From Escherichia coli (GTDB lineage: Bacteria > Pseudomonadota > Gammaproteobacteria > Enterobacterales > Enterobacteriaceae): a DNA stretch of 64,000 bases. The stretch is from assembly GCF_013122565.1 (NCBI RefSeq), contig NZ_CP053258.1; one strand, written 5' to 3'. This document shows positions 22,654-61,919 of the stretch, one piece after another. Under the pieces are notes generated by a model. It worked only from the letters and a program-made list of their open reading frames with translations, was not told the DNA's origin and did not search any database. Each line of letters opens with the position of its first letter. Positions within the stretch are counted from its first letter, which is position 1. Position numbers and translations under genes: made by a program.

Positions 22654-22729
<76 letters not shown>

Positions 22730-22782
22730 GTTTAAAAGACATCGGCGTCAGCGGATGTCTGGCTGAAAGGCCTGAAGAATTT

Positions 22783-22856
22783 GGCGCGTTAACAAAGCGG
22801 TTATGTAGCGGATTGCAAATCCGTCTAGTCCGGTTCGACTCCGGAACGCGCCTCCA
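22783..22856 (+). tRNA. cysT: tRNA-Cys (anticodon GCA)
   Basis: ggcgcgttaacaaagcggttatgtagcggattGCAaatccgtctagtccggttcgactccggaacgcgcctcca. Confidence 0.95.
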
Positions 22857-22868
22857 CTTTCTTCCCGA

Positions 22869-22955
22869 GCCCGGATGGTGGAATCGGTAGACACAAGGGA
22901 TTTAAAATCCCTCGGCGTTCGCGCTGTGCGGGTTCAAGTCCCGCTCCGGGTACCA
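22869..22955 (+). tRNA. leuZ: tRNA-Leu (anticodon TAA), long variable arm
   Basis: gcccggatggtggaatcggtagacacaagggattTAAaatccctcggcgttcgcgctgtgcgggttcaagtcccgctccgggtacca. Confidence 0.95.
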
Positions 22956-26711: not shown

Positions 26712-26727
26712 TGTGATTTGTATCACA
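26712..26727. promoter_or_regulatory. CRP binding site upstream of azuC
   Basis: tgtgatttgtatcaca is a perfect TGTGA-N6-TCACA CRP consensus; a second, weaker site tgtgatggttgtcata lies at 26742..26757. Confidence 0.6.
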
Positions 26728-26809: not shown

Positions 26810-26896
26810 ATGAAACTGCGCAAGATCCTGAAAAGTATGTTCAATAACTATTGCAAGACGTTCAAAGACGTACCGCCTGGCAATATGTTCCGATAA
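26810..26896 (+). CDS. azuC: Small membrane-associated protein AzuC (28 aa)
   Basis: Hand translation of atgaaactgcgcaag...atgttccgataa gives MKLRKILKSMFNNYCKTFKDVPPGNMFR; below the 60-aa cutoff of the ORF track; followed by a terminator. Confidence 0.8.
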   Translation: MKLRKILKSMFNNYCKTFKDVPPGNMFR

Positions 26897-27340: not shown

Positions 27341-27844
27341 TCAATGCAGCTGATGCGACACGACATTCAGAACATGTTGGTCGGTCTGCACAGGGCACAT
27401 ACCCGCAAGTTTCGCACTGCGCACCTCTTCAAGAATGGTTTGCAGCAACAGGCCATCATGCTGCTGTTCTTTTTCCAGATCGCGCAGGAAATTGACGGTT
27501 GAATCATCATTCAGTTCTTTCGCTTCATCGGCTAACTGCGCCAGCGTGCTTGAACGTTGCTCGTATTCTTCCATCGTTTTTTGGAACAGTTCTTCCAGAG
27601 AGTTCAGTTTTTCACCGGGAACATCAATGGCTTTAACGATGGGGGTAGCGCCGACACTCTTCATAAAGTTAAACATGCGCATCATTTGGGTCACATTACT
27701 CTGTGCCTGGGCGCGTAGGAAAGTGGCGGTGCCGTTCAGACTCTGTTCAGAACACCAGTTACTCAGGTGAAGGTAGAGATTGGATGCGTAAAACTCGCGG
27801 TTCATTTGAGAGTTGAGTTTGAGAAGCATTCCAGCGGTTGCCAT
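27341..27844 (-). CDS. ftnB: Ferritin-like protein FtnB
   Basis: ORF 27341..27844, 167 aa, [30 protein letters not shown]...; ferritin-like paralogue of ftnA. Confidence 0.9.
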
Positions 27845-28640
27845 ACCTAATATCCTTATATCCAGAAGTGGAGAGGTGCAAGATAAATCAAAGCACCATA
27901 ATTACTGTTTGCAGAATAATTCCTTTCTGCCGGTCCGAAATGTGATCGTGGAGTCAATTCTGACGATGATCTGAAATAAGAATAACGTGTGTACGGGTAT
28001 AAGAAAATCCTTAAATCATCAAGTTTATATTTTTTTACATTTCATTGATGAAATCAATGTAACTGCAATGAATTTTAATGATAGTGCTTTTTGTATCTTG
28101 TTGATATCAATCGATAGATTTAAATTCATGATGAAGCAATGATTTTATAAAACGTTTTTTCATTTTTGCGAGATGGCTCGCATTATATGTGTTCTGTTAA
28201 TTAATGAGCCCAGTGATAATTAATGGCGAAATGAATGACGCGCATTTCCCACATCTTTGAGTTGCGGTTATTACGCCATTTCAAAAGCTCAACGTCAGGT
28301 AATGCGGCCTATTGACTGGTTAAAAAGAAGACATCCCGCATGGGTACCAAAGACAACAAGGACTTCCAGGCTAATCTTATGGATTAATCTGCTGTGCACT
28401 CGACAATTTGTCTGACAAATAAGTATTTCCTTATGTCTTTTCCCGCTAAATTTATGCACGTTCTCACTGTAATTCTGCGATGTGATATTGCTCTCCTATG
28501 GAGAATTAATTTCTCGCTAAAACTATGTCAACACGGTCACTTATCTTTTAGTTAAAAGGTAATGCTTTGTTTTCCGATTAATTTAACGAAAGTCATTCGT
28601 TTTTGCCCTACACAAAACGACACTAAAGCTGGAGAGAACC

Positions 28641-29630
28641 ATGCACAAATTTACTAAAGCCCTGGCAGCCATTGGTCTGGCAGCCGTTATGTCACAATCC
28701 GCTATGGCGGAGAACCTGAAGCTCGGTTTCCTGGTGAAGCAACCGGAAGAGCCGTGGTTCCAGACCGAATGGAAGTTTGCCGATAAAGCCGGGAAGGATA
28801 TAGGGTTTGAGGTTATTAAGATTGCCGTGCCGGATGGCGAAAAAACATTGAACGCGATCGACAGCCTGGCTGCCAGTGGCGCAAAAGGTTTCGTTATTTG
28901 TACTCCGGACCCGAAACTCGGCTCTGCCATCGTGGCGAAAGCGCGTGGCTACGATATGAAAGTCATTGCCGTGGATGACCAGTTTGTTAACGCCAAAGGT
29001 AAGCCAATGGATACCGTTCCGTTGGTGATGATGGCTGCGACCAAAATTGGCGAACGTCAGGGCCAGGAACTGTATAAAGAGATGCAGAAACGGGGCTGGG
29101 ATGTCAAAGAAAGCGCGGTGATGGCGATTACCTCCAACGAACTGGATACGGCTCGTCGCCGTACTACGGGGTCTATGGATGCGCTGAAAGCTGCCGGATT
29201 CCCGGAAAAACAAATTTATCAGGTACCTACCAAATCTAACGACATCCCGGGGGCATTTGACGCTGCCAACTCAATGCTGGTTCAACATCCGGAAGTTAAA
29301 CATTGGCTGATCGTCGGTATGAACGACAGCACCGTACTGGGCGGCGTACGTGCAACCGAAGGTCAGGGCTTTAAAGCGGCCGATATCATCGGTATCGGTA
29401 TTAACGGTGTGGACGCAGTAAGCGAACTGTCTAAGGCACAGGCAACCGGCTTCTACGGTTCCCTGCTGCCAAGCCCGGATGTACATGGTTATAAGTCCAG
29501 CGAAATGCTTTACAACTGGGTAGCAAAAGGTGTTGAACCGACCAAATTCACCGAAGTTACCGACGTGGTGCTGATCACGCGTGACAACTTTAAAGAAGAA
29601 CTGGAGAAAAAAGGTTTAGGCGGTAAGTAA
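28641..29630 (+). CDS. araF: L-arabinose ABC transporter periplasmic binding protein AraF
   Basis: ORF 28641..29630, 329 aa, MHKFTKALAAIGLAAVMSQSAMAENLKLGFLVKQPEEPWF... Confidence 0.95.
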   Translation: MHKFTKALAAIGLAAVMSQSAMAENLKLGFLVKQPEEPWFQTEWKFADKAGKDIGFEVIKIAVPDGEKTLNAIDSLAASGAKGFVICTPDPKLGSAIVAKARGYDMKVIAVDDQFVNAKGKPMDTVPLVMMAATKIGERQGQELYKEMQKRGWDVKESAVMAITSNELDTARRRTTGSMDALKAAGFPEKQIYQVPTKSNDIPGAFDAANSMLVQHPEVKHWLIVGMNDSTVLGGVRATEGQGFKAADIIGIGINGVDAVSELSKAQATGFYGSLLPSPDVHGYKSSEMLYNWVAKGVEPTKFTEVTDVVLITRDNFKEELEKKGLGGK

Positions 29631-29645
29631 TTTGCCGGAAAAATT

Positions 29646-29668
29646 CCCCTCTGCATGATGCAGAGGGG
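29646..29668 (+). other. Intercistronic palindromic hairpin between araF and araG
   Basis: cccctctgcatgatgcagagggg is a near-perfect palindrome right after the araF stop; likely mRNA stability or partial termination element. Confidence 0.45.
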
Positions 29669-29699
29669 GTGTGAACGACCAGTGATTCACGGAGACGTT

Positions 29700-31214
29700 A
29701 TGCAACAGTCTACCCCGTATCTCTCATTTCGCGGCATCGGTAAAACGTTTCCCGGCGTTAAGGCGCTGACGGATATTAGTTTTGACTGCTATGCCGGTCA
29801 GGTTCATGCGTTGATGGGTGAAAATGGCGCAGGAAAATCAACTCTCTTAAAAATCCTCAGCGGCAACTATGCGCCAACCACGGGTTCTGTAGTGATTAAT
29901 GGGCAGGAAATGTCCTTTTCCGACACGACCGCAGCACTTAACGCGGGCGTGGCGATTATTTACCAGGAACTGCATCTCGTGCCGGAAATGACCGTCGCGG
30001 AAAACATCTATCTCGGCCAGCTGCCGCATAAAGGCGGCATTGTGAATCGCTCATTGCTGAATTATGAGGCGGGTTTACAACTTAAACATCTTGGTATGGA
30101 TATTGACCCGGACACGCCGCTGAAATATCTCTCCATTGGTCAGTGGCAGATGGTTGAAATCGCCAAAGCGCTGGCGCGTAACGCCAAAATTATCGCCTTT
30201 GATGAGCCAACCAGCTCCCTCTCTGCCCGTGAAATCGACAATCTTTTCCGCGTTATTCGTGAACTGCGAAAAGAGGGGCGGGTGATCTTATACGTTTCTC
30301 ACCGTATGGAAGAAATATTTGCCCTCAGCGATGCCATCACTGTCTTTAAAGATGGACGTTATGTCAAAACCTTTACCGATATGCAGCAGGTTGACCACGA
30401 CGCGCTGGTGCAGGCGATGGTCGGGCGCGACATTGGCGATATCTACGGCTGGCAACCGCGTAGTTATGGCGAGGAGCGCCTGCGTCTTGATGCTGTGAAA
30501 GCACCAGGCGTGCGTACGCCAATAAGTCTGGCGGTTCGCAGTGGTGAAATTGTTGGGCTGTTTGGTCTGGTAGGGGCGGGGCGTAGCGAATTAATGAAAG
30601 GCATGTTTGGCGGGACGCAAATAACCGCCGGTCAGGTTTATATCGACCAACAGCCGATCGATATTCGTAAACCGAGCCACGCCATTGCCGCAGGCATGAT
30701 GCTCTGCCCGGAAGATCGCAAAGCGGAAGGCATTATTCCCGTGCACTCCGTTCGCGACAATATCAACATCAGTGCCAGACGTAAACATGTGCTCGGCGGT
30801 TGTGTAATCAACAACGGTTGGGAAGAAAACAATGCCGATCACCACATTCGTTCTCTCAACATCAAAACGCCGGGCGCTGAGCAACTGATCATGAATCTCT
30901 CAGGCGGAAATCAGCAAAAAGCCATTCTGGGCCGCTGGTTATCGGAAGAGATGAAGGTCATTTTGCTGGATGAACCTACGCGCGGCATTGATGTTGGTGC
31001 TAAGCATGAAATTTACAACGTGATTTATGCGCTGGCGGCGCAGGGTGTGGCGGTGCTGTTTGCCTCCAGCGACTTACCTGAAGTCCTCGGCGTTGCCGAC
31101 CGGATTGTGGTGATGCGGGAAGGTGAAATCGCCGGTGAATTGTTACACGAGCAGGCAGATGAGCGTCAGGCACTGAGCCTTGCGATGCCTAAAGTCAGCC
31201 AGGCAGTTGCCTGA
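29700..31214 (+). CDS. araG: L-arabinose ABC transporter ATP-binding protein AraG
   Basis: ORF 29655..31214 trimmed to [23 protein letters not shown]... at 29700, 504 aa; duplicated ABC cassette (GENGAGKST ... LSGGNQQK). Confidence 0.9.
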
Positions 31215-31228
31215 GTAAGGAGAGTATG

Positions 31229-34581
<3,353 letters not shown>

Positions 34582-34587
34582 GAGCGG

Positions 34588-35016
34588 TTAATCTCCCGTA
34601 AGTGGAACTAACAGCACATCGACCTCACTTGAGGCAATCACTCTTTTCGCCGAGCAGGATGCTCGCGAAAAGAAACTGTGATTGTGATTACCGCAAATCA
34701 CCAAATCGAAATGATATTTGCGACAAACTTCCAGAATATGTTCGCTTAACTCACCGTAGGCAATAAACGTCTTGTCAACGGGATACCCCGCATCCTGAAT
34801 TAACTTATCAAGAAAGCTTTGCGTTTCTTCTTGCATCACGCTGCGTAAATCTTCAAGCATCGGCGCGGCTAATTGATTGTACATTTCCGGATCGGAAGCG
34901 AGAGTAATTAAACTGATGTGTCCCTTTACTGGCCTGGCGATAGATACCGCTTTTGCCAGCAGTTGCTGACTTTCCGGTGTAACCGCAACAGCGACAAGAA
35001 TATTGCTATAGCTCAT
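34588..35016 (-). CDS. uspC: Universal stress protein UspC
   Basis: ORF 34588..35016, 142 aa, MSYSNILVAVAVTPESQQLLAKAVSIARP... Confidence 0.9.
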   Translation of the reverse strand: MSYSNILVAVAVTPESQQLLAKAVSIARPVKGHISLITLASDPEMYNQLAAPMLEDLRSVMQEETQSFLDKLIQDAGYPVDKTFIAYGELSEHILEVCRKYHFDLVICGNHNHSFFSRASCSAKRVIASSEVDVLLVPLTGD

Positions 35017-35518
35017 AACCTGTTCCTTATTCTGTGAACTTCAGGTGACATTAAAGCTTTACTCCTAATGGAGAAACGACGCAATCCCAACTCAGTCAAA
35101 CAGGTAAATATTAGTCTGATTATTAGTAAAGACAATTAAACAATTGCTTCCGGTGATCATATGATTTCAAATGTAATTATAAGAAAATAGTGTACTGATT
35201 CTCCGCATTAAACAAGTGGTTAATATATGTAAAACATTTTATTAACATTAAGTTGATTGTTGCCTTTCTTTGTATTTAATCAGTTTGTTGTGCGGTAAGT
35301 GTCTGTTTAAAAATAGCTTATCTGGTATTGCATGAAAGTGATTATTTATAGCAGATGATTATTTACGGTGAGTTATTTTAACTGTGCGCAACATCCCATT
35401 TCGATTATTCCTGTTTCATTTTTGCTTGCTAGCGTTGCGAAAAACTTTTTAACAGATTGAAATACACCCAAAACAAAAGTATGACTTATACATTTATGTT
35501 AATTAATTGAGTGTTTTG

Positions 35519-35534
35519 TGTGATCTACATCACA
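35519..35534. promoter_or_regulatory. CRP binding site in the flhDC promoter region
   Basis: tgtgatctacatcaca is a perfect TGTGA-N6-TCACA; it lies ~270 bp upstream of the flhD start, consistent with the known CRP-activated flhDC promoter and its long 5'UTR. Confidence 0.65.
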
Positions 35535-35795
35535 CATTATTGAAAATCGGAGCCCCCCTCCGTTGTATGTGCGTGTAGTGACGAGTACAGTTGCGTCGAT
35601 TTAGGAAAAATCTTAGATAAGTGTAAAGACCCCTTTCTATTTGTAAGGACTTATTAAACCAAAAAGGTGGTTCTGCTTATTGCAGCTTATCGCAACTATT
35701 CTAATGCTAATTATTTTTTACCGGGGCTTCCCGGCGACATCACGGGGTGCGGTTAGACCGCATAAAAATAAAGTTGGTTATTCTGGGTGGGAATA

Positions 35796-36146
35796 ATGCA
35801 TACCTCCGAGTTGCTGAAACACATTTATGACATCAACTTGTCATATTTACTACTTGCACAGCGTCTGATTGTTCAGGACAAAGCGTCCGCTATGTTTCGT
35901 CTCGGCATAAATGAAGAAATGGCGACAACGTTAGCGGCACTGACTCTTCCGCAAATGGTTAAGCTGGCAGAAACCAATCAACTGGTTTGTCACTTCCGTT
36001 TTGACAGCCACCAGGCGATTACTCAGTTGACGCAAGATTCCCGCGTTGACGATCTCCAGCAAATTCATACCGGCATCATGCTCTCAACACGCTTGCTGAA
36101 TGATGTTAATCAGCCTGAAGAAGCGCTGCGCAAGAAAAGGGCCTGA
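35796..36146 (+). CDS. flhD: Flagellar master regulator subunit FlhD
   Basis: ORF 35787..36146 (GTG at 35787; ATG at 35796 gives [30 protein letters not shown]..., 116 aa). Confidence 0.9.
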
Positions 36147-36148
36147 TC

Positions 36149-36727
36149 ATGAGTGAAAAAAGCATTGTTCAGGAAGCGCGGGATATTCAGCTGGCAATGG
36201 AATTGATCACCCTGGGCGCTCGTTTGCAGATGCTGGAAAGCGAAACACAGTTAAGTCGCGGACGCCTGATAAAACTCTATAAAGAACTGCGCGGAAGCCC
36301 ACCGCCGAAAGGCATGCTGCCATTCTCAACCGACTGGTTTATGACCTGGGAACAAAACGTTCATGCTTCGATGTTCTGTAACGCATGGCAGTTTTTACTG
36401 AAAACAGGCTTGTGTAATGGCGTCGATGCAGTGATCAAAGCCTACCGTTTATACCTTGAACAGTGCCCGCAAGCAGAAGACGGACCGCTGCTGGCATTAA
36501 CCCGTGCCTGGACATTGGTGCGGTTTGTTGAAAGTGGATTACTGCAACTTTCCAGCTGCAACTGCTGCGGCGGCAATTTTATTACCCACGCTCACCAGCC
36601 TGTTGGCAGCTTTGCCTGCAGCTTATGTCAACCGCCATCCCGGGCAGTAAAAAGACGTAAACTTTCCCAGAATCCTGCCGATATTATCCCACAACTGCTG
36701 GATGAACAGAGAGTACAGGCTGTTTAA
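36149..36727 (+). CDS. flhC: Flagellar master regulator subunit FlhC
   Basis: ORF 36149..36727, 192 aa, [27 protein letters not shown]...; zinc-binding cysteines near the C-terminus. Confidence 0.95.
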
Positions 36728-36751
36728 CTGATACGGTGTGGCGCAACATTC

Positions 36752-36786
36752 CAGCAGCGGTAACGACGTACCGCTGCTTTTTTTTG
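36752..36786 (+). terminator. Rho-independent terminator after flhC
   Basis: Hairpin cagcagcggtaacgacgtaccgctgc followed by tttttttt. Confidence 0.65.
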
Positions 36787-36853
36787 CCCCAATCGCGCGT
36801 TAACGCCTGACGACTGAACATCCTGTCATGGTCAACAGTGGAAGGATGATGTC

Positions 36854-37737
36854 GTGCTTATCTTATTAGGTTACCTGGTTGTTCTCGGTACAGTTTTCGG
36901 CGGTTATTTGATGACCGGTGGAAGCCTTGGAGCACTCTATCAACCCGCTGAACTGGTGATTATTGCCGGTGCAGGGATTGGGTCGTTTATCGTCGGCAAT
37001 AATGGCAAAGCGATTAAAGGCACGCTGAAGACGCTGCCGTTGCTGTTTCGTCGCTCCAAATACACCAAAGCAATGTATATGGATCTGCTGGCTCTGCTTT
37101 ATCGGTTGATGGCGAAATCGCGGCAGATGGGGATGTTTTCGCTGGAACGTGATATTGAAAATCCCCGTGAGAGCGAGATCTTCGCCAGCTACCCACGCAT
37201 CCTTGCGGATAGCGTCATGCTTGATTTTATCGTCGATTATCTGCGTCTGATTATCAGCGGTCACATGAACACCTTCGAAATCGAAGCCCTGATGGATGAA
37301 GAGATTGAGACGCACGAAAGCGAGGCAGAAGTCCCGGCGAACAGTCTGGCGCTGGTCGGGGACTCACTTCCGGCGTTTGGTATTGTCGCGGCTGTAATGG
37401 GGGTCGTTCACGCGTTAGGTTCAGCCGATCGTCCTGCCGCCGAGCTGGGGGCGCTTATCGCACATGCGATGGTGGGGACTTTCCTCGGCATTTTATTGGC
37501 TTACGGATTTATTTCCCCATTAGCAAGTGTTTTACGTCAGAAAAGCGCCGAAACCAGCAAAATGATGCAGTGCGTCAAAGTCACACTGCTTTCTAATCTG
37601 AACGGTTACGCACCGCCTATCGCCGTTGAGTTTGGTCGCAAAACGCTCTATTCCAGCGAACGTCCGTCGTTTATTGAACTGGAAGAGCATGTGCGTGCGG
37701 TGAAAAATCCGCAACAACAGACGACAACCGAGGAAGC

Positions 37738-37741
<4 letters not shown>
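36854..37741 (+). CDS. motA: Flagellar motor stator protein MotA
   Basis: ORF 36854..37741, 295 aa, [30 protein letters not shown]... Confidence 0.95.
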
Positions 37742-40633
<2,892 letters not shown>

Positions 40634-40653
40634 ATGAGTAAAAAGGTAACAAT

Positions 40654-41157
40654 ATGACCGGTATGACGAATGTAACAAAGCTGGCCAGCGAGCCGTCAGG
40701 CCAGGAATTTCTGGTATTTACCCTTGGTGATGAAGAGTACGGTATTGATATCCTGAAAGTGCAGGAGATCCGTGGCTACGATCAGGTAACACGGATTGCG
40801 AACACGCCAGCGTTTATCAAAGGCGTCACGAATCTGCGCGGCGTTATTGTGCCGATTGTTGACTTACGAATTAAGTTCAGCCAGGTGGATGTGGACTATA
40901 ACGACAACACGGTAGTTATCGTCCTGAATCTCGGACAGCGGGTGGTCGGCATCGTGGTTGACGGCGTTTCAGACGTGCTTTCATTGACGGCGGAGCAAAT
41001 TCGTCCGGCACCAGAGTTTGCCGTGACGCTTTCAACAGAATATCTCACTGGACTGGGCGCACTGGGCGACCGGATGTTGATTCTGGTGAACATCGAAAAA
41101 CTGCTGAACAGCGAAGAGATGGCGCTGTTAGATAGCGCGGCGTCAGAAGTGGCGTAA
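40654..41157 (+). CDS. cheW: Chemotaxis coupling protein CheW
   Basis: ORF 40654..41157, 167 aa, [33 protein letters not shown]... Confidence 0.95.
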
Positions 41158-41183
41158 TTCTCCCGATTTCCTCAATTGAAATG

Positions 41184-41213
41184 AACCCGATGATCTGCGC
41201 ATCGGGTTTTTTA
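41184..41213 (+). terminator. Rho-independent terminator after cheW
   Basis: Hairpin cccgatgatctgcgcatcggg followed by ttttttatttc. Confidence 0.65.
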
Positions 41214-41243
41214 TTTCAATTTCGCGGCGGGTGGCATCAGCAA

Positions 41244-41270
41244 TAAAGTTTCCCCCCTTCTTGCCGATAA
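41244..41270 (+). promoter_or_regulatory. sigma-28 class 3 promoter of the tar-tap-cheRBYZ operon
   Basis: taaagttt-N11-gccgataa: exact match to both halves of the sigma-28 consensus with 11-nt spacer, ~30 nt upstream of tar. Confidence 0.78.
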
Positions 41271-41301
41271 CGAGATTAACTTGTTTTCAGGAAGGTGCCT
41301 T

Positions 41302-42963
41302 ATGATTAACCGTATCCGCGTAGTCACGCTGTTGGTAATGGTGCTGGGGGTATTCGCACTGTTACAGCTTATTTCCGGCAGTCTGTTTTTTTCTTCCCTT
41401 CACCATAGCCAGAAGAGCTTTGTGGTTTCCAATCAATTACGGGAACAGCAGGGCGAGCTGACGTCAACCTGGGATTTAATGCTGCAAACGCGCATTAACC
41501 TGAGTCGTTCAGCGGTGCGGATGATGATGGATTCCTCCAATCAACAAAGTAACGCCAAAGTTGAATTGCTCGATAGCGCCAGGAAAACATTGGCCCAGGC
41601 CGCGACTCATTATAAAAAATTCAAAAGCATGGCACCGTTACCTGAAATGGTCGCTACCAGTCGTAATATTGATGAAAAATATAAAAACTATCACACAGCG
41701 TTAACTGAACTGATTGATTATCTTGATTATGGCAATACTGGAGCTTATTTCGCTCAGCCAACCCAGGGAATGCAAAATGCAATGGGCGAAGCGTTTGCTC
41801 AGTACGCCCTCAGCAGTGAAAAACTGTATCGCGATATCGTCACTGACAACGCAGATGATTACCGATTTGCCCAGTGGCAACTGGCGGTTATCGCGCTGGT
41901 GGTGGTATTGATTCTGCTGGTGGCGTGGTACGGCATTCGTCGTATGTTGCTTACACCGCTGGCAAAAATTATTGCGCATATTCGCGAAATCGCCGGTGGT
42001 AACCTGGCGAATACTCTGACCATTGACGGACGCAGTGAAATGGGCGACCTGGCGCAGAGCGTTTCACATATGCAACGCTCTTTGACTGACACCGTCACTC
42101 ATGTGCGTGAAGGTTCAGATGCCATCTATGCCGGTACCCGTGAAATTGCGGCGGGCAACACCGATCTTTCCTCCCGTACGGAACAGCAGGCATCGGCGCT
42201 GGAAGAAACTGCCGCCAGCATGGAGCAGCTCACCGCAACAGTGAAGCAAAACGCCGATAACGCCCGCCAGGCCTCGCAACTGGCGCAAAGTGCCTCCGAC
42301 ACCGCCCAGCATGGCGGCAAAGTAGTGGATGGCGTAGTGAAAACGATGCATGAGATCGCCGATAGTTCGAAGAAAATCGCCGACATTATCAGCGTTATCG
42401 ACGGTATTGCCTTCCAGACTAATATCCTCGCGCTGAATGCCGCTGTTGAAGCCGCGCGAGCGGGTGAACAGGGCCGTGGTTTTGCCGTGGTGGCGGGCGA
42501 AGTGCGTAATCTTGCCAGCCGCAGCGCCCAGGCGGCAAAAGAGATCAAAGCCCTCATTGAAGACTCCGTCTCGCGCGTTGATACCGGTTCGGTGCTGGTC
42601 GAAAGCGCCGGGGAAACAATGAACAATATCGTCAATGCTGTCACTCGCGTGACTGACATTATGGGCGAGATTGCATCGGCATCGGATGAACAGAGCCGTG
42701 GCATCGATCAAGTCGCATTGGCGGTTTCGGAAATGGATCGCGTCACGCAACAGAACGCATCGCTGGTGCAGGAATCAGCTGCCGCCGCAGCTGCGCTGGA
42801 AGAACAGGCCAGTCGTTTAACGCAAGCGGTTTCCGCGTTTCGTCTGGCAGCCAGCCCACTCACCAATAAACCGCAAACACCATCCCGTCCTGCCAGTGAG
42901 CAACCACCGGCACAGCCACGACTGCGAATTGCTGAACAAGATCCAAACTGGGAAACATTTTGA
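41302..42963 (+). CDS. tar: Methyl-accepting chemotaxis protein II, Tar (aspartate/maltose)
   Basis: ORF 41281..42963 trimmed to [22 protein letters not shown]... at 41302, 553 aa; C-terminal NWETF pentapeptide (CheR/CheB tether). Confidence 0.92.
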
Positions 42964-43008
42964 TGAGTATTTACTAACGCGGTCATTGCCGCCTGATGGG
43001 GAGCGTTG

Positions 43009-44610
43009 ATGTTTAATCGTATTCGAATTTCGACCACGCTGTTTTTAATTTTGATTCTCTGCGGGATCTTGCAGATTGGCAGTAACGGCATGTCTTTTTG
43101 GGCATTTCGCGACGATTTGCAACGACTGAATCAGGTCGAGCAGAGCAATCAGCAACGTGCGGCATTAGCGCAAACTCGGGCGGTAATGTTACAGGCCAGT
43201 ACCGCGCTGAACAAAGCGGGCACTCTGACGGCACTTAGCTATCCGGCGGATGACATTAAAACGTTGATGACGACGGCGCGCGCCAGTCTGACGCAATCCA
43301 CTACGCTGTTTAAAAGTTTTATGGCGATGACTGCGGGCAACGAGCACGTCAGGGCGTTGCAAAAAGAGACGGAGAAAAGTTTTGCCCGCTGGCACAACGA
43401 TCTCGAACATCAGGCGACCTGGCTTGAAAGTAATCAACTTTCGGATTTCCTCACTGCGCCGGTGCAGGAATCACAGAATGCGTTTGACGTTAACTTTGAG
43501 GCCTGGCAGCTGGAGATCAACCATGTGCTGGAAGCCGCCAGTGCGCAAAGCCAGCGTAACTATCAGATTTCGGCGCTGGTGTTTATCAGCATGATTATTG
43601 TTGCGGCGATCTACATCAGCAGTGCGCTGTGGTGGACGCGCAAGATGATTGTTCAACCACTGGCCATTATCGGTAGCCATTTTGACAGCATTGCTGCGGG
43701 TAATCTGGCGCGTCCGATTGCGGTATATGGTCGCAACGAGATCACCGCCATTTTTGCCAGCCTGAAGACCATGCAGCAGGCTTTGCGTGGGACGGTAAGT
43801 GATGTGCGTAAGGGAAGCCAGGAGATGCACATTGGTATCGCGGAGATTGTCGCAGGCAATAACGATCTCTCAAGTCGTACCGAACAGCAGGCGGCATCGC
43901 TGGCACAAACGGCCGCCAGTATGGAGCAATTAACCGCCACGGTAGGGCAAAACGCCGATAACGCACGACAGGCGTCGGAACTGGCAAAAAATGCCGCGAC
44001 AACGGCGCAGGCGGGCGGTGTTCAGGTCAGTACCATGACTCACACCATGCAGGAGATCGCCACCAGCTCGCAAAAAATTGGCGACATTATCAGCGTTATC
44101 GACGGAATTGCTTTCCAGACCAATATTCTGGCCCTGAATGCGGCAGTGGAAGCGGCTCGCGCCGGAGAGCAGGGGCGTGGTTTTGCGGTAGTGGCAGGTG
44201 AAGTGCGCAATCTTGCCAGCCGTAGCGCGCAGGCAGCAAAAGAGATCAAAGGGCTGATCGAAGAGTCAGTCAATCGTGTCCAGCAGGGTTCGAAACTGGT
44301 GAATAACGCCGCCGCGACCATGACCGATATTGTCAGTTCGGTGACCCGCGTGAACGACATTATGGGAGAAATTGCTTCGGCCTCGGAAGAACAACGGCGG
44401 GGGATTGAGCAGGTTGCGCAGGCTGTCAGCCAGATGGATCAGGTGACACAGCAGAACGCCTCCTTGGTAGAAGAAGCGGCGGTGGCAACGGAACAACTGG
44501 CGAATCAGGCCGACCATCTTTCGTCGCGTGTGGCGGTATTTACCCTTGAAGAACATGAAGTAGCACGACATGAGTCGGCGCAGTTACAAATTGCGCCAGT
44601 GGTATCCTGA
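43009..44610 (+). CDS. tap: Methyl-accepting chemotaxis protein IV, Tap (dipeptide/pyrimidine)
   Basis: ORF 43006..44610; ATG at 43009 gives MFNRIRISTTLFLILILCGILQ..., 533 aa; lacks the NWETF tail, as expected for Tap. Confidence 0.92.
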   Translation: MFNRIRISTTLFLILILCGILQIGSNGMSFWAFRDDLQRLNQVEQSNQQRAALAQTRAVMLQASTALNKAGTLTALSYPADDIKTLMTTARASLTQSTTLFKSFMAMTAGNEHVRALQKETEKSFARWHNDLEHQATWLESNQLSDFLTAPVQESQNAFDVNFEAWQLEINHVLEAASAQSQRNYQISALVFISMIIVAAIYISSALWWTRKMIVQPLAIIGSHFDSIAAGNLARPIAVYGRNEITAIFASLKTMQQALRGTVSDVRKGSQEMHIGIAEIVAGNNDLSSRTEQQAASLAQTAASMEQLTATVGQNADNARQASELAKNAATTAQAGGVQVSTMTHTMQEIATSSQKIGDIISVIDGIAFQTNILALNAAVEAARAGEQGRGFAVVAGEVRNLASRSAQAAKEIKGLIEESVNRVQQGSKLVNNAAATMTDIVSSVTRVNDIMGEIASASEEQRRGIEQVAQAVSQMDQVTQQNASLVEEAAVATEQLANQADHLSSRVAVFTLEEHEVARHESAQLQIAPVVS

Positions 44611-44628
44611 AGTGATTGAGAAGGCGCT

Positions 44629-45489
44629 ATGACTTCATCTCTGCCCTGTGGGCAAACGTCTTTATTGTTACAGATGACCGAGCGCCTGGCGCTTTCCGAC
44701 GCGCATTTTCGGCGGATAAGTCAATTGATCTATCAACGAGCCGGGATCGTCCTTGCCGACCATAAACGCGACATGGTTTACAACCGACTGGTTCGTCGTT
44801 TGCGTTCGCTGGGACTGACGGATTTCGGTCATTATCTGAACTTGCTGGAATCTAATCAGCACAGCGGTGAGTGGCAGGCGTTTATCAATTCGCTGACCAC
44901 GAATCTGACGGCATTTTTCCGTGAGGCACACCATTTCCCTCTGCTCGCGGATCATGCACGTCGCCGTTCTGGCGAGTATCGCGTATGGAGCGCGGCGGCT
45001 TCAACCGGCGAAGAGCCATACAGCATTGCGATGACGCTGGCTGACACATTGGGCACCGCGCCCGGACGCTGGAAAGTGTTTGCCAGCGATATCGACACCG
45101 AAGTGCTGGAAAAAGCCAGAAGCGGTATTTATCGCCATGAAGAGTTGAAAAACCTGACGCCGCAGCAACTGCAACGGTATTTCATGCGAGGGACGGGACC
45201 GCATGAAGGGCTGGTACGCGTGCGTCAGGAGCTGGGGAACTATGTTGATTTTGCCCCGCTGAATTTACTGGCGAAACAGTACACCGTGCCGGGGCCGTTT
45301 GATGCGATCTTCTGTCGTAACGTCATGATCTACTTCGATCAAACTACTCAGCAGGAGATTTTGCGCCGCTTTGTTCCGCTCCTTAAACCCGACGGATTGC
45401 TGTTTGCGGGTCACTCTGAAAACTTTAGCCACCTTGAGCGCCGCTTCACGCTGCGTGGTCAGACGGTGTATGCGCTAAGTAAGGATTAA
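44629..45489 (+). CDS. cheR: Chemotaxis methyltransferase CheR
   Basis: ORF 44629..45489, 286 aa, [32 protein letters not shown]... Confidence 0.95.
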
Positions 45490-45491
45490 CG

Positions 45492-46945
<1,454 letters not shown>

Positions 46946-46955
46946 GGATGCGACT

Positions 46956-47600
46956 ATGATGCAACCATCAATCAAACCTGCTGACGAGCATTCAGCTGGC
47001 GATATCATTGCGCGCATCGGTAGCCTGACGCGTATGCTGCGCGACAGTTTGCGGGAACTGGGACTGGATCAGGCCATTGCCGAAGCGGCGGAAGCCATCC
47101 CCGATGCGCGCGATCGTTTGTACTATGTTGTGCAGATGACCGCCCAGGCTGCGGAGCGGGCGCTGAACAGTGTTGAGGCGTCACAACCGCATCAGGATCA
47201 AATGGAGAAATCAGCAAAAGCGTTAACCCAACGTTGGGATGACTGGTTTGCCGATCCGATTGACCTTGCCGACGCCCGTGAACTGGTAACAGATACGCGG
47301 CAATTTCTGGCAGATGTACCCGGACATACCAGCTTTACTAACGCGCAACTGCTGGAAATCATGATGGCACAGGATTTTCAGGATCTCACCGGGCAGGTTA
47401 TTAAGCGGATGATGGATGTCATTCAGGAGATCGAACGTCAGTTGCTGATGGTGTTGTTGGAAAACATCCCGGAACAGGAGTCGCGTCCAAAACGTGAAAA
47501 CCAGAGTTTGCTTAATGGACCTCAGGTCGATACCAGCAAAGCTGGTGTGGTAGCCAGTCAGGATCAGGTGGACGATTTGTTGGATAGTCTTGGATTTTGA
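46956..47600 (+). CDS. cheZ: CheY-P phosphatase CheZ
   Basis: ORF 46926..47600 trimmed to [24 protein letters not shown]... at 46956, 214 aa. Confidence 0.92.
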
Positions 47601-47618
47601 TTTGTATTGCCTGAACTT

Positions 47619-47643
47619 CGGCCTGCGCGATGATGCCAGGCCG
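47619..47643. terminator. Hairpin between convergent cheZ and the inserted nucleotidyltransferase gene
   Basis: Inverted repeat cggcctg...caggccg 19 nt after the cheZ stop; no strong T-run, so weak. Confidence 0.35.
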
Positions 47644-47687
47644 ATAGCAGGGTGGCGAGTATCGTTCAGGGAGTACGTGGAGGATGG

Positions 47688-48440
47688 TTATTTGTAGTTT
47701 GATAATTTTAGATCAGCGAAGCGTGTTTGTTGCGCCAGTAAATTTATCAACGCATTAAATTGTGAACGAGAAAATGACGATGACTGGTAGTGCAGTACAT
47801 CGTAATGATGCCAAACTTCATAACGTTTTTTCGTCAGTTCATGGTGCAAGAAATGACAGAGTTCCGGACCTAAACTCTTTACCTGCTTAGTAAAAATAGT
47901 GCGTAAAATCTTCGTTACCGAACCGCTTGGATTGGGGTTAGTATGAAGAACAAGTTCAAGATGTCTGCGATTTAAGTCGGTCAAATAATTATCTTTACTG
48001 ATAATTTTTTCACTACGTAGATCATAGAGCACGGCATCCCAACTCATTAGCGTAGTGTTTAACAGACTTGATTCATCCTCACAAAATATAAGTTTTTCCC
48101 GAAATGCCCATGTCTCATTGAGGTTCCAGATATCAAATTCGAAGTCGTGATAACGAAAACGGATCCCACCGAACTTATTAAAACGCAGTTGTTTAACGGG
48201 CAATTCAGCCAATGTCCGGAAGAGTTCCTCACGGGAGCGACCGATGACGATATCAAGGTCTGAAGAAAATCCTTCGACGCCAAACAAGCCTAAGTCACGC
48301 ACCATCCCGCCAAAAATCCAGGCCGGACAGGAACAGGCCAGAGTATCAAGTAATACTCTGGCTTTCTTATGCTCATCACTAAGCGTAAAAAAATCGGCGA
48401 TACGCTGTTCAAGCTGTTGGGTGTTTGAGACCACATTCAT
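47688..48440 (-). CDS. Pol-beta-superfamily nucleotidyltransferase (CCA/MNT/SMODS-like fold), function unknown; downstream gene of inserted operon
   Basis: ORF 47688..48440, 250 aa; nucleotidyltransferase signature ...AWIFGGMVRDLGLFGVEGFSSDLDIVIG... (hG[GS]-x9-13-DhDh) with a third acidic residue in ...HDFEFDIWNL...; start overlaps upstream gene by 32 nt; no equivalent gene between cheZ and flhB in K-12 as I recall; AT-rich. Confidence 0.7.
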   Translation of the reverse strand: MNVVSNTQQLEQRIADFFTLSDEHKKARVLLDTLACSCPAWIFGGMVRDLGLFGVEGFSSDLDIVIGRSREELFRTLAELPVKQLRFNKFGGIRFRYHDFEFDIWNLNETWAFREKLIFCEDESSLLNTTLMSWDAVLYDLRSEKIISKDNYLTDLNRRHLELVLHTNPNPSGSVTKILRTIFTKQVKSLGPELCHFLHHELTKKRYEVWHHYDVLHYQSSSFSRSQFNALINLLAQQTRFADLKLSNYK

Positions 48441-49917
48441 ACAGTGATTTTAGCTCATCGTGAAGGCGCATTAAATAACTATCCGTCATGCCTGAGATTG
48501 CGTCGGTAAGCAACTGCGCTTCTTTATAAAGAATAGGGAGTGTATTGGCGGGATCTTCAAACACACGGCGATAATTTTCAGAGATTGTCCCGTAAGCATA
48601 GCGACCAAAGGGAGTATCCGATAGGTATTCTTCACGAGAAACAAAAAGGTTATCTGCAGACGCGGACTCGCGTTCTCCGTCTCGTTCTTTCTTTGTTTTG
48701 TGTCCATGGATGCCAATCCAGAGCATATCCATCAAGTTAGTAATGTAATTAGACCCCCTAAGTTCCAGTTGCAAGACTGAACGATGAAGGTAGCCTCGTG
48801 TTCGGTCGAACATTTTCAGGGCAGTGCAGAGAGCGTGACCTTTGCTTTGCGAGATTAAATCTTTGAACGGGCAGTCACGCTGCATCAGCGTGGGTAATTG
48901 TTCGCGAAAGGCTTCAACTACGGCATTAATCAATGCACTGGTGGCATACACTCTGAACATTTGCATACTGAGTTCATTAATTTCTGCCGGTGAAAGTGCA
49001 TTTCTTTGCTCTTTCCAGGCGTCATTTTTGGCCTCTACAGCTTTAATAACATTTTCAATTACATCGTTCGACTCGGATTGTGACATCAAAAAATCACGCA
49101 AATCCTGGTATGAGGCAAATCCTTTCTTGATGGTATCTTCTGCGTCAAGCACAGAGTAGGCAATATCGTCGCAAGCTTCCATTATCCAGGTAAATGGGTG
49201 GCGGCAACCGGCATCATTACCTGGTACGCCAAGGCCCGTTTGCTGCCAGACATCCATGACAACCTCATGCTCAGAATAGAAAAAACCGTGTTTTTTCCAA
49301 TGTTTGTCCGATGAATATGAAGCTCGGGGATATTTGATCAGTGCAGCCAGCGTGGCATAGGTCAGATTCAGACCAAAGTTATCGTTAATAATTTGTAATT
49401 TGGTAACCAGGCGCAGGGTTTGTGAGTTTCCATCAAATTGCAGAAAGTCGTTATATATTTCGCTGTTTACTTCTTTATCAAGAAGGCCTGGAAGATTTTT
49501 ATTAAACCATGCGCGCATCGCTGCTTCACCTTGATGCCCAAATGGTGGATTACCGAGATCGTGTGCCAGTCCGATCGCTGCTAACAGAGCAGGAACGTCG
49601 CGTTCAACGACAATCCCCGTGGGTATTTCGCCAAAGATGTGTTCCTTCATCTCGAAAGCGAGCCTCATTCCTATTCCGCGAGCAAAGTTTGCTACTTCGT
49701 GAGAATGAGTCAGCCTCGTCCGTATACTGTCATTTTGATCTAACGGGAAAACTTGTGTTTTATCCGCCAGCCGACGAGTTGGCGCAGCAAAAAGTAATCG
49801 GTCGTAATCCCGCTCGATCTCTTGTCTTCCGCGAGCAAGGGGATGTAAAAATTCTATGCTGGTTTTTTTTAGATTATCTTTTCGACGGTTGCAGTTAAGC
49901 AATTGTTGCCATTCCAT
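48409..49917 (-). CDS. Dgt-family dNTP (dGTP) triphosphohydrolase paralogue (HD domain); upstream gene of inserted operon
   Basis: ORF 48409..49917, 502 aa; Dgt hallmark motifs: DKTQVFPLDQNDSIRTRLTHSHEV (HD histidine), GLAHDLGNPPFGHQGE (HD aspartate), FDGNSQTLRLV, HPFTWIMEACDDIAYSVLDAEDTIKKG, LTDAISGMTDSYL; RBS aagg 7-8 nt before ATG; AT-rich. Confidence 0.82.
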   Translation of the reverse strand: MEWQQLLNCNRRKDNLKKTSIEFLHPLARGRQEIERDYDRLLFAAPTRRLADKTQVFPLDQNDSIRTRLTHSHEVANFARGIGMRLAFEMKEHIFGEIPTGIVVERDVPALLAAIGLAHDLGNPPFGHQGEAAMRAWFNKNLPGLLDKEVNSEIYNDFLQFDGNSQTLRLVTKLQIINDNFGLNLTYATLAALIKYPRASYSSDKHWKKHGFFYSEHEVVMDVWQQTGLGVPGNDAGCRHPFTWIMEACDDIAYSVLDAEDTIKKGFASYQDLRDFLMSQSESNDVIENVIKAVEAKNDAWKEQRNALSPAEINELSMQMFRVYATSALINAVVEAFREQLPTLMQRDCPFKDLISQSKGHALCTALKMFDRTRGYLHRSVLQLELRGSNYITNLMDMLWIGIHGHKTKKERDGERESASADNLFVSREEYLSDTPFGRYAYGTISENYRRVFEDPANTLPILYKEAQLLTDAISGMTDSYLMRLHDELKSLYECGLKHPTA

Positions 49918-57071: not shown

Positions 57072-57827
<756 letters not shown>

Positions 57828-57873
57828 TTTTTACCGTTGCATCATGTCGCCCAATATGATGCTTGCTCGTACC

Positions 57874-57907
57874 AGGCCCCTGCAATTTCAACAGGGGCCT
57901 TTTTTTA
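57874..57907 (+). terminator. Rho-independent terminator after cutC
   Basis: Hairpin aggcccctgcaatttcaacaggggcct followed by ttttttt. Confidence 0.72.
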
Positions 57908-61820: not shown

Positions 61821-61919
61821 GCCTGATGCGCTATGCTTATCAGGCCTACATAGTCCCTGCAATATATTGAATTAGCAAGGTTTTGTAGGCCGGATAAGGC
61901 GTTCACGCCGCATCCGGCA
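61821..61919. repeat. BIME: two inverted REP units
   Basis: gcctgatgcgctatgcttatcaggcctaca (61821..61850) and tgtaggccggataaggcgttcacgccgcatccggca (61884..61919); near-identical to the pair downstream of fliC. Confidence 0.8.

Follow-up and report, generated by a model that had tools for sequence, protein, structure and literature searches.

The promoter of flhDC, its site for CRP (cAMP receptor protein) and its activation by IS1 or IS5 belong to the textbook, well-published biology of Escherichia coli K-12. With IS1 or IS5 inserted upstream of the operon, flhDC is expressed more strongly and motility increases (PMC5100188, PMC11237407, PMC9478672, PMC5289928). The upstream stretch is bound by H-NS and prone to insertion (PMC5493358), and within it the IS5 target has been placed at -99 to -96 (PMC5100188). 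IS5-activated flhDC alleles have also been described in RP437 and MC1000 (PMC5100188, PMC5289928). Poor motility of strains without an insertion is documented for K-12 backgrounds (PMC5493358, PMC11237407, PMC5100188). Among ECOR isolates, variation in motility followed class III expression and not the activity of PflhD (PMC5289928).

We examined the corresponding region in the window, by which we mean the whole 64,000-nucleotide stretch of E. coli DNA analyzed here. A sequence-only reading had described the uspC-flhD gap as free of insertion sequences, with a perfect CRP site, and had taken this to be an ancestral, tightly regulated configuration that laboratory K-12 lineages commonly escape through IS1 or IS5. 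We conclude with high confidence that positions 35017..35795 are the native, uninterrupted flhDC regulatory region of an E. coli that is natural and not K-12. Such regions are ordinary and already known, and lack of an IS is by itself no ground for assuming a cryptic flhDC in natural isolates.

The flhDC locus and its empty insertion sites

Gene order in the window is that of E. coli, with araFGH-otsBA-uspC upstream and flhDC-motAB-cheAW-tar-tap-cheRBYZ downstream, and flhD, flhC, motAB, cheAW, tar, tap and cheRBYZ are all intact. The uspC gene for universal stress protein C (34588..35016, minus strand, from the ORF list) is divergent from flhD; its name comes from an exact-protein match in the protein collection, and related genomes have their annotated uspC at the corresponding position. 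The gene context, with uspC and flhD divergent and flhC-motAB-cheAW next, is that of the flhDC class I (master operon) promoter. The intergenic regulatory region between the two divergent genes is uninterrupted and 779 bp long (35017..35795), in agreement with the earlier estimate of about 780 bp. It is AT-rich throughout (27–39% GC), with 27–31% GC in its upstream ~400–450 bp.

On the plus strand, flhD (35796..36146, 116 aa) begins at a canonical ATG at 35796 and has no internal stops; the ORF list gives, in addition, a GTG in frame at 35787. It is followed by an intact flhC (36149..36727, plus strand, 192 aa), likewise from the ORF list. The FlhC allele is very common, its exact protein occurring in 27,986 blocks of the protein collection. 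The exact FlhD protein is rare, being found in only 9 contigs of a 15-billion-protein collection. FlhD differs from the common allele by T74A (codon 74, about 36015..36017).

The intergenic region aligns end to end with those of 11 other E. coli lineages, whose gaps measure 778–780 bp when free of an IS. Relative to the window, MG1655 has one extra block, consisting of the 768-bp IS1H (insA5/insB5) and an 8-bp duplication. According to the MG1655 alignment and annotation, the target of this insertion is CATTTATG at 35492..35499 (-106..-99 from the inferred start); it is present as an empty single copy in the window, and two copies flank IS1H in MG1655. The known IS5 target, TTAA at 35499..35502 (-99..-96; PMC5100188), is also unoccupied. 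At this place W3110-P carries a 1195-bp IS5 with a copy of TTAA on either side, and in the window TTAA is undisrupted and occurs once. The IS5-activated alleles of W3110-P, RP437 and MC1000 are thus alleles of the same locus with the same target, but they hold a 1195-bp IS5 at TTAA and the window does not.

Searches for the elements themselves agree with the alignments. Scanning the whole 64 kb for the terminal repeats, with up to 3 mismatches tolerated for IS1 and up to 2 for IS5, gave no match, and the matches of full-length IS1H and IS5 to the window were all at chance level (no longer than 26 nt, E >= 0.14) and lay outside 35017..35795. No transposase ORF is present, the longest ORF touching the region encoding 40 aa. 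A repeat search of the region returned no IS-like terminal inverted repeats and no target duplications, and its direct repeats are short chance matches. The marks of an allele activated by IS1, IS5 or IS3 are therefore missing from the -40..-520 stretch: it contains no additional DNA of at least 768 bp, no IS inverted repeats or transposase ORF, and no target-site duplication, both known insertion points being single-copy. The claim that the region lacks IS ends and a transposase ORF is thus upheld by alignments, end scans, full-IS searches and the ORF list. Neither IS1 or IS5 inverted repeats nor a duplicated target, either of which the sequence-only reading had named as grounds for giving it up, were found, and the alignments to MG1655 and to a W3110-type genome that it had proposed show the window to be empty at both the IS1H site and the IS5 site. 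The accompanying statement on K-12 laboratory lineages is also accurate, MG1655 having IS1H and W3110-P having IS5 at TTAA.

An IS might once have been present and then excised, or might persist as a hidden remnant such as a solo inverted repeat or a duplicated target; the argument for this is that IS elements visit the locus frequently. The length of the region is within 1 bp of that in other lineages, CATTTATG and the TTAA at -99..-96 each occur once, and neither IS-end homology nor IS-like inverted repeats were found in it, so that this explanation is effectively refuted and an original, uninterrupted region is retained as our reading.

To place the window within the species, the -520..-40 stretch was searched against the complete E. 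coli genomes of RefSeq, of which 5,421 out of 5,426 match. The search was run in blastn mode and insertions of at least 740 bp were counted as splits. We used this blastn (distant mode) figure instead of megablast place counts, which underestimate split loci because, in the short piece on the right, 28-mer seeds are broken by private SNPs of the window. About 175 extra places (3%) represent copies of the stretch split by a large insertion, and 85 genomes cover less than 80% of it in one piece; it follows that 5,161 to 5,246 genomes (95–97%) are uninterrupted. Laboratory K-12 derivatives are among the interrupted genomes, for example W3110-P with IS5. Some K-12 derivatives are IS-free, with the region 100% covered in one piece. 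The IS-free region is the species norm and not a notable retention. The description of the window as ancestral therefore stands for the lack of an IS, trivially, as about 95–97% of the species shares it; the K-12 frame in which it was put is wrong, the region differing from that of K-12 by 19 substitutions.

An IS1 breaks the region at window position 35481 (about -117) in at least one clinical isolate, AF56 from blood (NZ_OZ546963.1), so upstream IS insertions are not limited to laboratory strains.

Core promoter, leader and CRP site

The transcription start of flhDC is placed at 35598 by homology to K-12, whose leader measures 198 nt. The MG1655 annotation of the antisense RNA AsflhD maps to 35598..35817, and the IS5 target at -99..-96 of the literature lands exactly on the TTAA at 35499–35502, a fit that holds only for a start at 35598. 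Transcription from there would produce a 5' untranslated leader of 198 nt (35598..35795, plus strand). From the spacing and the start, the sigma-70 promoter is predicted to comprise a putative -35 hexamer TTGTAT (35563..35568, plus strand) and, separated from it by 17 bp, a putative -10 hexamer TACAGT (35586..35591, plus strand). A putative RcsAB box, TAGGAAAAATCTTA at 35602..35615 (plus strand; +5..+18), is identical in MG1655 and all lineages compared. The whole interval 35563–35615, including both hexamers and the box, is identical to MG1655, and the other lineages are polymorphic in it only at 35572 and 35588; identity to MG1655 extends over the first 30 nt of the leader. The two hexamers escaped a strict scan for consensus promoters, as is expected of a weak activator-dependent promoter, and the two matches that the scan did return are below chance expectation.

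Several other E. coli lineages have TAAAGT in place of TACAGT (A at 35588), linked with A at 35572; this -10 polymorphism is absent from the window.

The counterpart of AsflhD lies at 35598..35817 on the minus strand, by coordinate transfer from the MG1655 annotation (1978176..1978395). AsflhD is reported to have a length of about 220 nt and to start 22 nt into flhD (bioRxiv 10.1101/2021.05.11.443715). An Rfam search of 34000..37500 gave nothing even at E <= 1, and hence no family for the AsflhD counterpart.

Upstream of the core promoter, TGTGATCTACATCACA at 35519..35534 is an exact match to TGTGA-N6-TCACA with perfect half-sites, as the sequence-only reading had stated. Its center at 35526.5 falls at -71.5, that is, about 71.5 bp upstream of a start transferred by homology. 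Soutourina et al. 1999 reportedly found CRP centered at -71.5 of flhDC, and we take this position in the window to be that of a class I CRP site. TGTGA-N6-TCACA occurs twice in the window against 0.09 occurrences expected, and none of 100 shuffles reached two.

A census of the site by exact matches of a 46-mer spanning it in the 5,426 complete E. coli genomes shows that the majority allele, TGTGATCTGCATCACA, also with perfect half-sites, is carried by at least 3,174 genomes (58%). The K-12 allele, TGTGATCTGCATCACG, with TCACG, is found in 403 (7%) and the window allele in 2. Among 12 aligned sequences only MG1655 has G at 35534; the other lineages differ in the flanks or the spacer and keep both half-sites. 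The K-12 site is an atypical, weaker-matching minority allele, and perfect half-sites are usual in natural strains. A perfect CRP site with TCACA is accordingly the majority natural state and not that of K-12, which has TCACG. Genomes with the majority allele, such as WCHEC020031 and O157:H7 PV15-279, resemble the window in being IS-free, with a 779-bp gap and TGTGA/TCACA half-sites. They differ from it in the spacer, which is TCTGCA in the majority allele and TCTACA in the window (G to A at 35527, -71), and the window is at most 98.1% identical to any such genome.

The 22-bp CRP consensus, AAATGTGATCTAGATCACATTT, is matched at 16 of 22 positions by the window, at 15 by the majority allele and at 14 by K-12. 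If anything, this better match suggests stronger activation in the window than in IS-free K-12. One could go further and propose that the spacer change at -71 together with TCACA (-64) makes a stronger and more CRP-responsive promoter than that of K-12, pointing to the ranking of consensus matches and to the rarity of the spacer allele (2 of 5,426 genomes). However, a rare allele on a divergent lineage may well be the product of neutral drift, the intergenic divergence of 2.5% against 1.4% in coding sequence is unremarkable, and spacer positions add little to CRP binding. We regard this proposal as very unlikely and favor an ordinary native promoter.

By analogy with K-12, a weak sigma-70 promoter (TTGTAT, 17 bp, TACAGT) most likely directs transcription from near 35598 to give the 198-nt leader, and class I activation would come from cAMP-CRP bound to TGTGATCTACATCACA at -71.5. 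Farther upstream, the AT-rich 450 bp probably serve as a silencer region and a platform for H-NS, LrhA, OmpR and other nucleoid and repressor proteins known from K-12. It is into this AT-rich stretch that IS1 or IS5 inserts in laboratory strains, releasing the operon from repression. The long leader would additionally be subject to post-transcriptional control.

Lineage and sequence divergence

Over the 779 bp, the window differs from MG1655 by 19 substitutions (97.6% identity outside the IS). Among the 5,426 complete RefSeq genomes of E. coli, none exceeds 98.1% identity to the region, and over 20 kb the best identity to any of them is 98.4%, with the nearest matches coming from soil and fresh water. 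Position 35534 is A in the window and not G as in MG1655. By these sequence comparisons the window is from a natural E. coli and not from K-12, and its source lineage is thinly represented among complete E. coli genomes. MG1655 (NC_000913.3) shares with the window the same genes and their order, the core promoter, the +5..+18 box, the 198-nt leader and the position of the CRP site. It differs in carrying IS1H and the 8-bp duplication at window positions 35492–35499, and in a CRP site, TGTGATCTGCATCACG, whose half-sites contain one mismatch.

The coding sequences differ from those of the nearest genome at 251 positions, 211 of them (84%) third codon positions, and no gene in the comparison has a stop. 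The intact genes and the predominance of third-position differences indicate that the locus is under purifying selection. Divergence from this genome is 2.5% in intergenic and 1.4% in coding sequence. The Logan assembly SRR11451224 (contig SRR11451224_27) is identical to window positions 27738..48664 over 20,927 bp, with 0 mismatches. We considered whether the 1.6% divergence could be an artefact and rejected this on the strength of the third-codon differences (84%), the lack of stops and the identical independent read assembly. The exact AraF, OtsB, MotA, MotB and CheA proteins correspond to GenBank accessions within QJU23890-QJU23899. Two exact flhDC-promoter strings, of which one does match three E. 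coli loci, MG1655 among them, had 0 matches in a 100,044-species genome collection; either both strings differ in its E. coli representative or part of the collection was left unsearched.

The lineage bears directly on whether the window represents an ancestral, K-12-like cryptic state in which flhDC is poorly expressed and the cell weakly motile until an IS inserts, which we consider unlikely. Such a state is suggested by the poor motility of BW25113 and some MG1655 stocks, in which IS1 or IS5 restores motility (PMC5100188, PMC5493358, PMC11237407, PMC5289928), and by the presence in the window of both IS targets, CATTTATG and TTAA, in an empty state. The window resembles those IS-free K-12 stocks (BW25113 and MG1655 variants, for example the JW5437-1 background) in having the region uninterrupted. 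Unlike the window, these stocks have the TCACG CRP allele and other K-12 substitutions. The window is not K-12, and its CRP site is closer to the consensus than the K-12 TCACG. Moreover, about 95–97% of E. coli are IS-free, and IS-free E. coli include many motile natural isolates. Fahrner and Berg (2015) reportedly found that flhDC in K-12 is stimulated by single-base changes in the CRP region, which also speaks against a cryptic state here. Finally, it is class III expression, and not PflhD activity, that motility tracks in ECOR (PMC5289928). Since the window comes from a different lineage with a CRP site nearer the consensus, a cryptic phenotype is not readable from the absence of an IS. The description of the region as tightly regulated, with the poor motility that this implies, extrapolates a K-12 phenotype to the window by analogy. 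A native regulatory region of a natural lineage remains the reading that we prefer.

Eight substitutions are private to the window among the 12 aligned sequences. Those at 35140, 35146 and 35149 make up, together with a change at 35145, four changes within 10 bp (-458..-449), and another is at 35281. The substitution at 35503 adjoins the IS5 target and that at 35527 is in the CRP spacer. The one at 35550, between the CRP site and the -35 hexamer, completes a 5-bp stem (CGGAG-CCCCC-CTCCG), and the last, at 35754, falls in the loop of a leader hairpin. The CRP half-sites, the promoter hexamers and the +5..+18 box are all missed. The sequence pattern suggests that the private substitutions are probably neutral. 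The private promoter changes (the CRP spacer, the stem at 35550 and the cluster at -458..-449) might conceivably retune CRP-dependent control of motility in a lineage separated by 1.6% or more from all complete RefSeq genomes over 20 kb, but we see only a very slim chance of this.

Positions 35140..35149 read TAAACAATTGCTTCC in the window and TAATCAATCACTCCC in other strains, which creates a CAATTG palindrome ~125–135 bp ahead of the start codon of uspC. A perfect TATAAT occurs close by, at 35163, in K-12 and three of the 11 lineages compared; the window and the other seven have TATGAT there.

Other features of the window

Coordinate transfer from MG1655 places the counterpart of the MotR sRNA at about 36691..36785 on the plus strand; Rfam reported no family at the transferred position. 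Matches at the Rfam gathering score elsewhere in the window are to MicL sRNA, C0465 RNA, three tRNAs and ES036 sRNA, with match intervals of 57599..57906, 41177..41254 (minus strand), 22654..22952 and 61842..61884 (minus strand). The second and only other perfect CRP site in the 64 kb is TGTGATTTGTATCACA at 26712..26727, ~90 bp ahead of azuC, a small ORF (MKLRKILKSMFNNYCKTFKDVPPGNMFR, 26810..26896, plus strand), and this site presumably belongs to the CRP-dependent azuC/AzuCR promoter.
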